Shown in pieces: positions 37,881 through 38,180 of a stretch of DNA of 40,738 nucleotides (the stretch's first letter is position 1; every line of letters starts with the position of its first letter). The position numbers and the translations under genes were made by a program. The notes under the pieces were generated by a model. That model did not search any database, was not told the origin of the DNA, and saw only the letters and a program-made list of their open reading frames with translations. The stretch is taken from IMG/VR virus record IMGVR_UViG_640753023_000013; one strand, given 5' to 3'. Source of the DNA: a virus. Lineage: Duplodnaviria > Heunggongvirae > Uroviricota > Caudoviricetes.

Positions 37881-38180
37881 GTGAGAAAGTTAAGCCGACT
37901 TGAAAAATATCACATGAATAAGGTTTCAATGCGCAGTCCGTCAAAGATTGTCGCCGTTACTCCTGCGGCGATAGAGATCGAAAAACGCGCGATTGAAAGA
38001 GAGAAAAAAGGGCAGTTCCGCATTGCCGCTCACCTTTGGCTTCAGTGTATGGATGTTGCTTCTGGTGATGTTGAGCGTGCAAGGATCGCGGTTCGCAGGG
38101 ACCAATGTATCACAAAAGGTAACGGCCTTCGCCGTGGAGACTATAGCGGTATAGGATGTTGCGGGGTGGTTTATGACTAA
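37881..38180 (+). CDS. PerC-family putative transcriptional activator
   Basis: Segment FRIAAHLWLQCMDVASGDVERARIAVRRDQC resembles the PerC/Pch core; GTG start with GAGAGG RBS. Confidence 0.45.
   Translation: MRKLSRLEKYHMNKVSMRSPSKIVAVTPAAIEIEKRAIEREKKGQFRIAAHLWLQCMDVASGDVERARIAVRRDQCITKGNGLRRGDYSGIGCCGVVYD

Follow-up and report, generated by a model that had tools for sequence, protein, structure and literature searches.

The window, by which we mean the whole stretch of 40,738 nucleotides analysed here, is a phiV10/epsilon15-type (Uetakevirus) temperate prophage of E. coli. On its + strand, an open reading frame with a GTG start (37881..38180) encodes a PerC-like protein of 99 aa. The frame is embedded in the following series of genes and candidate control sites:

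34353..34937, + strand: HTH repressor gene of the epsilon15 gp38/SPC32H Rep type
34958-34977: terminator-like hairpin after the repressor gene
34995-35009 and 35057-35071, no strand assigned: two TTACC-N5-GGTAA palindromes, one on each side of the promoter-like site
35029..35057, + strand: candidate early-left promoter TTGACA-17-AATTAT, consensus match 10/12
35542-36441, + strand: gene of the YqaJ/lambda-exonuclease type, recombination, same operon
36451-37473, + strand: RecT gene, recombination, same operon
37523..37771, + strand: AlpA-family HTH gene, excisionase/transcriptional regulator type (PF05930, 24.2 bits vs 21; phrog_66)
37768..37884, + strand: single-pass membrane peptide of 38 aa (phrog_17484, E 2.5e-26)
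37881..38180, + strand: perC-like gene, 99 aa, with a core three-helix region (aa ~28-84) between an N-terminal helix specific to the subfamily (aa 6-17) and a C-terminal tail that is conserved (Y88-D99)
38173..38823, + strand: MT-A70 family DNA methyltransferase gene, its ATG overlapping the last perC-like codons (ATGACTAA)
38820..39479, + strand: calcineurin-like Ser/Thr phosphatase gene, the last of the operon
39482..40738, - strand: P4-type tyrosine integrase gene, convergent with the operon and marking the prophage end that adjoins guaA in relatives

Early-left operon of the prophage

Two small ORFs lie between the promoter-like site and the YqaJ-type exonuclease gene. Further downstream the frames interlock: the membrane-peptide ORF begins in an overlap with the AlpA-type stop (ATGA), the stop of this ORF overlaps the GTG of the perC-like gene (GTGA), and the methylase start lies within the end of the latter. 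Overlaps of this kind from the AlpA-type gene to the methylase gene would be the usual signature of translational coupling. The arrangement parallels that of lambda (cI, PL-OL, exo-bet-xis), and the term ‘early-left operon’, under which the first-pass annotation had filed the gene, is therefore apt. This placement agrees with the repressor gene, the hairpin behind it and the operator-flanked promoter-like site, and with the absence of any + strand terminator-like site between 35057 and 39480.

Our calls of promoter, terminator and operators are consensus matches, supplemented for the operators by the annotation of one record. In that record, of epsilon15, the same palindromic motif is found at the same distances from the repressor stop and is annotated as ‘repressor; lysogeny’ binding sites; the TTGACA of our promoter-like site is placed as is the TTGACA between these annotated sites. 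Upstream of the repressor gene, the divergent region has two further TTACC-N5-GGTAA sites. From its operator-controlled early-left position it follows that expression of the perC-like gene should track induction or infection, with low-level read-through from the repressor gene being possible in lysogens.

The TTACC-N5-GGTAA pattern occurs 13 times in the window against 0.65 expected. The same pattern with a 6-nt spacer gave a single match, which is the chance level, and was discarded; the 5-nt spacer is the correct one. The 15-nt sites start at positions 6610, 6990, 8042, 25716, 28867, 28885, 31934, 31996, 33898, 34235, 34283, 34995 and 35057. Four of them are the OL/OR-type operators. The remaining nine are dispersed over the genome, mostly lie at the ends of long ORFs or just beyond them, and include sites around the antirepressor gene and between the replication and late genes. 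This distribution suggests putative binding by the repressor (or another protein) far beyond the immunity region.

The region containing the perC-like gene is 95-99% identical to Uetakevirus phages such as phiV10, PAS61, ZX5 and O157 typing phages 9 and 10; identity to Salmonella phage epsilon15 is ~79%. The same 1.5 kb were found in 631 out of 5426 complete E. coli genomes, ST95 and ST131 strains among them. In strain ST95-32 the integrase end adjoins guaA, in agreement with the integration of ZX5 reported at this gene (PMC9782041). Besides ExPEC-type E. coli (ST95, ST131), carriers of the gene include Salmonella, Citrobacter, Klebsiella and Enterobacter.

Several other features of the prophage deserve mention. 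It contains a tRNA-Arg gene with the anticodon TCT (26053-26129, +). At 7041-7116 and 7141-7226 (+), Rfam models identify the isrK Hfq-binding sRNA (77.9 bits) and a C4 antisense RNA (77.7 bits), both directly upstream of a Bro-N domain (antirepressor-type) gene at 7274-7969. Together they constitute an RNA-controlled antirepressor module in the style of P1/P7 c4-ant, here in a podovirus prophage. At the end opposite to the integrase, past the lysis cassette, a gene for a glycine-zipper/TraT-like protein (1-516, +) and a DUF5384 gene (532-1071, +) look like lysogenic-conversion cargo.

Start codon and integrity of the perC-like gene

The first codon of the gene has been annotated in different ways. 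In the RefSeq record of phiV10, the first internal ATG (37914) is taken as the start, 11 codons late, for a protein of 88 aa; the PGAP model takes the second internal ATG (37929), 16 codons late, for one of 83 aa. Several lines of evidence bear on this choice. The GTG at 37881 overlaps the stop of the upstream 38-aa ORF. The homologues from epsilon15, Citrobacter, Superficieibacter and Scandinavium have ATG as their first codon at the same position. The N-terminal EKYH motif is nearly invariant in relatives, while both internal Met codons are replaced by codons for Leu, Gln and other residues in most of them. Among 80 copies in IMG/VR, 79 encode the identical protein, and the remaining one has TTG for GTG, which is still a start codon; being near-identical, this set is uninformative on diversity. 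For these reasons, GTG at 37881 is the correct start, and the 83-aa and 88-aa gene models are N-terminally truncated. The boundaries given in the first-pass annotation (37881-38180) were borne out by conservation, dN/dS and the start codons of relatives, and are better than those of RefSeq.

Purifying selection acts along the whole ORF: dN/dS is ~0.1-0.2 in each segment (N-terminal part, core and tail), with codons 2-16 included, as estimated from a few usable pairs drawn from the window, epsilon15 and four loci of other genera. We also considered that the ORF could be a chance frame or a decaying remnant devoid of function. In favor of this, some database copies are frameshifted, shortened or fused with the upstream peptide. 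However, selection extends over the full ORF, 79 of the 80 IMG/VR copies are intact and identical, the intact cluster comprises 893 member sequences vs 1-5 in most of the broken clusters, and 51-78% identity is kept across other enterobacterial genera. The probability of such an origin is negligible; dN/dS and the IMG/VR copies already refute it.

Two competing frames at the locus were dismissed. For the antisense ORF at 37941-38189 (82 aa), both the conservation pattern and dN/dS fit the 99-aa frame of the + strand instead. The +1 frame, open from 37993 to 38154, is used only in frameshifted database variants.

The database variants themselves are of several kinds. In several of them, a part of which come from complete NCBI genomes, ‘ENARLKERKK’ replaces ‘EKRAIEREKK’, which fits a –1 slip in the A5 run (37981-37985) offset by a +1 slip in the A6 run (38004-38009). 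Other variants are shifted to the +1 frame or have the 38-aa membrane peptide fused in frame with the PerC core (P0087, P0118). All these variants could reflect either real homopolymer variation or sequencing error. In K. pneumoniae ATCC 13883 (locus L016, 5942-6168), the PerC-like match begins only at residue 45 and abuts the membrane-peptide ORF; this gene looks like a deletion derivative.

Family membership and architecture of the PerC-like protein

The gene almost certainly belongs to the PerC family. The first-pass annotation had claimed a PerC homologue and named an HMM search against the family as the check, with the lack of a significant match as the outcome that would refute it. In this search, residues 35-80 aligned to positions 5-50 of the 90-position Pfam PerC profile (PF06069) with 30.1 bits (E 6e-7), over the gathering cut-off of 22.6 bits, and the claim holds. 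PHROG 868 (‘transcriptional activator’) covers the protein from end to end (1-99/99, E 5.7e-62). BLASTP against PerC of EPEC (pMAR2) gave 40% identity over 60 aa (E 2e-10), and hhalign comparison of a subfamily profile built from 30 members with a profile of PerC, Pch and EcCIMP1_025 gave 95% probability (E 3.6e-8) over 47 columns. A tblastn search of plasmids with the PerC-like protein did not reach PerC of pEAF.

When the window protein was aligned with epsilon15 gp31, EPEC PerC, group-1 Pch of O157, SfV orf40 and Pantoea phage AH07 gp46, eight positions were invariant across the six proteins (A37, E41, G44, A49, A50, W53, R66 and C76), and the core signature A-x3-E-x2-G-x-[YF]-R-x-A-A-x2-W ... 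E-R ... C is present in the window protein. We do not claim a cysteine metal site: only C76 and, nearly so, C56 are conserved, and the C-terminal cysteines vary. The assignment as such is already known, since RefSeq and several phage records name the product a PerC family transcriptional regulator or PerC transcriptional activator.

The closest named counterparts are epsilon15 gp31 (NP_848239) and phiV10 gp34 (YP_512289), which fall in PHROG 868 and are orthologues that differ in nothing of substance. Epsilon15 gp31 is 78% identical to the window protein over all 99 residues. The phiV10 region is 98.7% identical at the DNA level. Both orthologues occupy the same slot of the operon, between membrane peptide and methylase; in phiV10, a DUF1382 gene takes the place of the phosphatase gene of the window.

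Resemblance to more distant relatives is confined to the core. PerC of EPEC (pEAF/pMAR2, WP_000405638) aligns through its residues 5-64 with residues 34-91 of the window protein at 40% identity; both proteins are small, are encoded on mobile DNA and have the same invariant signature (A..E.KG.[YF]R.AA..W...ER...C). In EPEC PerC the core comes first and is followed by ~35 C-terminal residues in common with Pch, whereas the window protein has a 33-aa extension before the core and a different 15-aa tail after it. The plasmid gene is also the last of the perABC operon, in contrast to the phage early gene studied here. PchA/B/C (group 1), encoded by lambdoid prophages of EHEC, are likewise prophage-borne and share the core (40% identity over 40 residues, E 1e-6), but have the PerC-type C-terminal half and are encoded between the lysis cassette and the terminase gene. 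EcCIMP1_025 of an E. coli PICI (WP_000617443) shares the core as well (36% identity over 44 residues, E 1e-7) and, unlike the window protein, has the PerC-type C-terminal half. Its element also has AlpA-type genes and a tyrosine integrase gene, yet the PerC-like gene lies far from alpA and int.

Thus, only a helical core of ~47-60 aa is common to the window protein and PerC/Pch. Of the 99 residues, the alignment reaches no further than about residue 91. The conserved C-terminal part (V..., MG, FR) into which all three of the experimentally tested relatives used for this comparison (PerC, Pch and EcCIMP1_025) continue, PerC residues ~55-89, has no counterpart in the window protein, which carries instead its 33-residue N-terminal extension and the conserved tail YSGI..GVVYD. 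By this architecture, the protein represents a separate subfamily of the PerC family. A search of the full library with the subfamily profile returned no more than 72 cluster representatives at E<=1e-3, of which only two are intact and full-length. The others match the core only and are short proteins with an N-terminal core, proteins of ~140-150 aa with a C-terminal core, and a few repeat proteins. PerC domains are encoded in at least three places of phage genomes: the early-left position seen in the window, the position after the replication genes (SfV, AH07) and the gap between lysis genes and terminase (group-1 pch).

An AlphaFold2 model based on the 30-sequence alignment (mean pLDDT 75.7, with residues 31-80 at 84-92) has four helices (6-17, 28-42, 46-59 and 63-84) and a low-confidence tail (88-99). 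No helix-turn-helix or other DNA-binding motif was seen in the model. Sequence searches of PDB chains revealed nothing meaningful (best E ~1), and the MIT/TPR-like three-helix bundles returned by Foldseek against the PDB (best E 0.16) were not read as homology given their non-significant E-values. Among predicted viral structures, the best superpositions were with phage proteins of ~60 aa, one of them named as ANR family, at an rmsd of 0.9-1.5 A and a target-normalised TM-score of 0.79-0.86; their E-values (0.08-0.7) are also non-significant.

Gene neighbourhood and possible function

With its full-length PHROG 868 match, the AlpA-type gene and membrane peptide upstream and the P4-type integrase gene downstream, the locus has the composition by which we define the early-left module of Uetakevirus. 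Nine diverged loci were compared for synteny: epsilon15 and eight loci supplied by a GTDB scan (two from Citrobacter, one from Superficieibacter, two from Scandinavium, and one each from ‘Ca. Erwinia dacicola’, Buttiauxella and Klebsiella). Every one of them has the trio of AlpA-type gene, membrane peptide and PerC-like gene in direct succession, with coordinates that touch or overlap in most, and the P4-type integrase is kept throughout. By contrast, the exonuclease/RecT pair has been replaced in five of the nine, and the downstream cargo varies. The same order of the three genes is observed in a prophage on the K. pneumoniae plasmid pKPN-fff and in Enterobacter phage BUCT554. Since the trio is kept while recombination genes and cargo vary, the perC-like gene looks like a fixed part of the phage early programme rather than a moron acquired for the benefit of the host.

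Another neighbourhood recurs in unrelated phage backbones, namely the pairing of a PerC-domain gene with a DNA-modification gene. In SfV (L006, 2210-3351) the PerC-domain gene is immediately upstream of a gene labelled dam, for which the RefSeq product name is PAPS reductase. In Uetakevirus-type loci it overlaps an MT-A70 methylase gene or lies one gene upstream of it (window, 38173-38823; L098, 5001-6035).

Proteins of the PerC family have been tested mostly for their influence on the LEE. PerC and PchA-C are LEE1 activators. Pch, which is required for LEE expression (PMC6265319, PMC4764244), activates LEE1 by lowering H-NS binding and displaces H-NS from LEE1; its effect vanishes once H-NS/StpA/Hha silencing is removed, and Pch did not co-precipitate with H-NS in the authors' hands (PMC4764244). 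PerC also influences metabolism and fim phase variation (PMC5293775). The LEE is little affected by PchD/E, and PchE represses csgD and curli (PMC6265319). The PerC-like genes of the PICIs EcCIEDL933 and EcCICFT073 had no impact on LEE1 fusions, and overexpression of EcCIMP1_025 represses LEE1-lux in C. rodentium (PMC11773190). The activators of the family and the repressor EcCIMP1_025 are about equally similar to the window protein. As tested family members activate, ignore or repress the LEE, the effect of a further member on it is not readable from homology.

We interpret the gene as the orthologue of epsilon15 gp31/phiV10 gp34, encoding a small all-helical regulatory protein of the PerC family in a temperate Uetakevirus; its mechanism, carried over from relatives, has at best an even chance of being as we describe it. 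The gene would be silent in a stable lysogen, and its product would be made early after infection or induction, along with the AlpA-type protein. The three-helix core probably works as in relatives, either by altering silencing complexes of the H-NS/StpA/Hha type, as Pch does, or by binding a regulator directly, as ANR proteins do. Either mode would shift transcription of silenced, horizontally acquired DNA. The relatives lending this mechanism share only ~40% identity over 40-60 residues with the window protein, and Pch-type activity may not carry over, given that the C-terminal half of PerC, Pch and EcCIMP1_025 is missing here. The primary targets are more likely to be the phage's own development or general host physiology than one virulence island, because the AlpA/membrane peptide/PerC-like trio is fixed in hosts with and without the LEE.

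The function suggested by the family name itself, in which the protein would activate host virulence loci (ler/LEE1 or equivalents) in the manner of PerC and PchABC and prophage induction would feed virulence expression, is improbable in our estimation. It could draw on PerC-family membership, on the carriage of the gene by phiV10 and by O157 typing phages 9 and 10, which infect LEE-positive O157:H7, and on the rise of group-1 pch expression upon SOS induction in O157 (PMC6265319). Yet group-1 pch sits elsewhere in its phages, between lysis genes and terminase, the C-terminal half common to PerC and Pch is absent from the window protein, and several family members have little, no or the opposite effect on the LEE (PMC6265319, PMC11773190). 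Moreover, the gene is fixed in prophages of Salmonella, Citrobacter, Klebsiella, Enterobacter and ExPEC lineages, and lysogeny by ZX5, which is 98.5% identical to the window over the perC-like region, left growth, biofilm, stress response, HeLa adherence and virulence unchanged (PMC9782041), a result that concerns the whole phage and not the gene singly. An effect of the protein on host virulence genes is therefore doubtful, and their activation, which the first-pass annotation had brought up from PerC/Pch proteins of other prophages, would extrapolate from another branch of the family; it is only possible and finds no support in the present analysis.

Two other explanations put the emphasis on binding partners, and we regard each of them as rather unlikely. 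The protein could be an anti-activator of the ANR type, which binds a factor of the AraC/XylS class and/or H-NS and dampens expression, as Aar and apparently EcCIMP1_025 do. Aar is a three-helix protein of 63 aa with no DNA-binding domain that binds AggR and H-NS (PMC5570504). The core of the window protein may be a three-helix bundle of the size seen in this family, and its model shows no DNA-binding motif, but the protein has 99 aa with a fourth helix and a tail; one ANR-named phage protein of ~60 aa is among the best-superposing neighbours. The NCBIfam ANR model (NF033650) gives 23.6 bits over residues 35-77 and misses its cut-off of 32; EPEC PerC, an activator, scores 18.2 bits on the same model. 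This resemblance is thus a property of the PerC family as a whole and does not distinguish between activation and anti-activation. The same likeness was seen by the authors of PMC11773190, who propose ANR-like action for their PerC-family repressor. ANRs accompany AraC/XylS activators (PMC4983702), but no AraC/XylS gene is found among the operon neighbours of the window (exo, RecT, AlpA, membrane peptide, methylase and phosphatase), and ANRs, at ~60 aa, lack the N- and C-terminal extensions of the window protein. Alternatively, the protein could serve within the phage as a partner of AlpA-type protein and integrase, acting in the control of excision and integration or in a later transcription switch, with no consequential host targets. 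The constant order and adjacency of the trio in every diverged locus, its overlapping or abutting frames in most of them, the retained P4-type integrase and the exchange of recombination genes and cargo around it are consistent with this possibility, as is the joint occurrence of AlpA and PerC-family genes in Gram-negative PICIs (PMC11773190, PMC6092414). All of this is co-location, however, and the PerC-domain genes of SfV and AH07 follow replication genes with no AlpA or integrase gene adjacent, while that of EcCIMP1 is remote from both.

More broadly, and tentatively, the trio may be one functional unit that the phage needs for its development, in which the PerC-like protein might relieve phage DNA of nucleoid silencing or adjust the excision decision of AlpA and integrase; we consider this a possibility on the less likely side. 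Were it true, PerC and Pch would have branched off from an ordinary early regulator of phages for which virulence was not the original job, and PerC and ANR would be two branches of one three-helix fold acting on H-NS-type complexes.

For now the gene matters little, being a routine member of a known family that databases already annotate, in a prophage that is common. The present analysis makes modest additions, namely a corrected start, the architecture of the subfamily, the conserved trio and the operator-flanked promoter-like site. The first has a practical consequence: the RefSeq models drop 11-16 conserved N-terminal codons, and cloning of the annotated ORF would therefore express a truncated protein. 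The label ‘PerC family’ should not be taken to mean ‘virulence activator’, since this subfamily is without half of the PerC/Pch protein and tested relatives act in opposite ways. If the protein does act on H-NS-type silencing at induction, the prophage would be a widespread modulator of silenced genes, as about one in nine complete E. coli genomes contains it.
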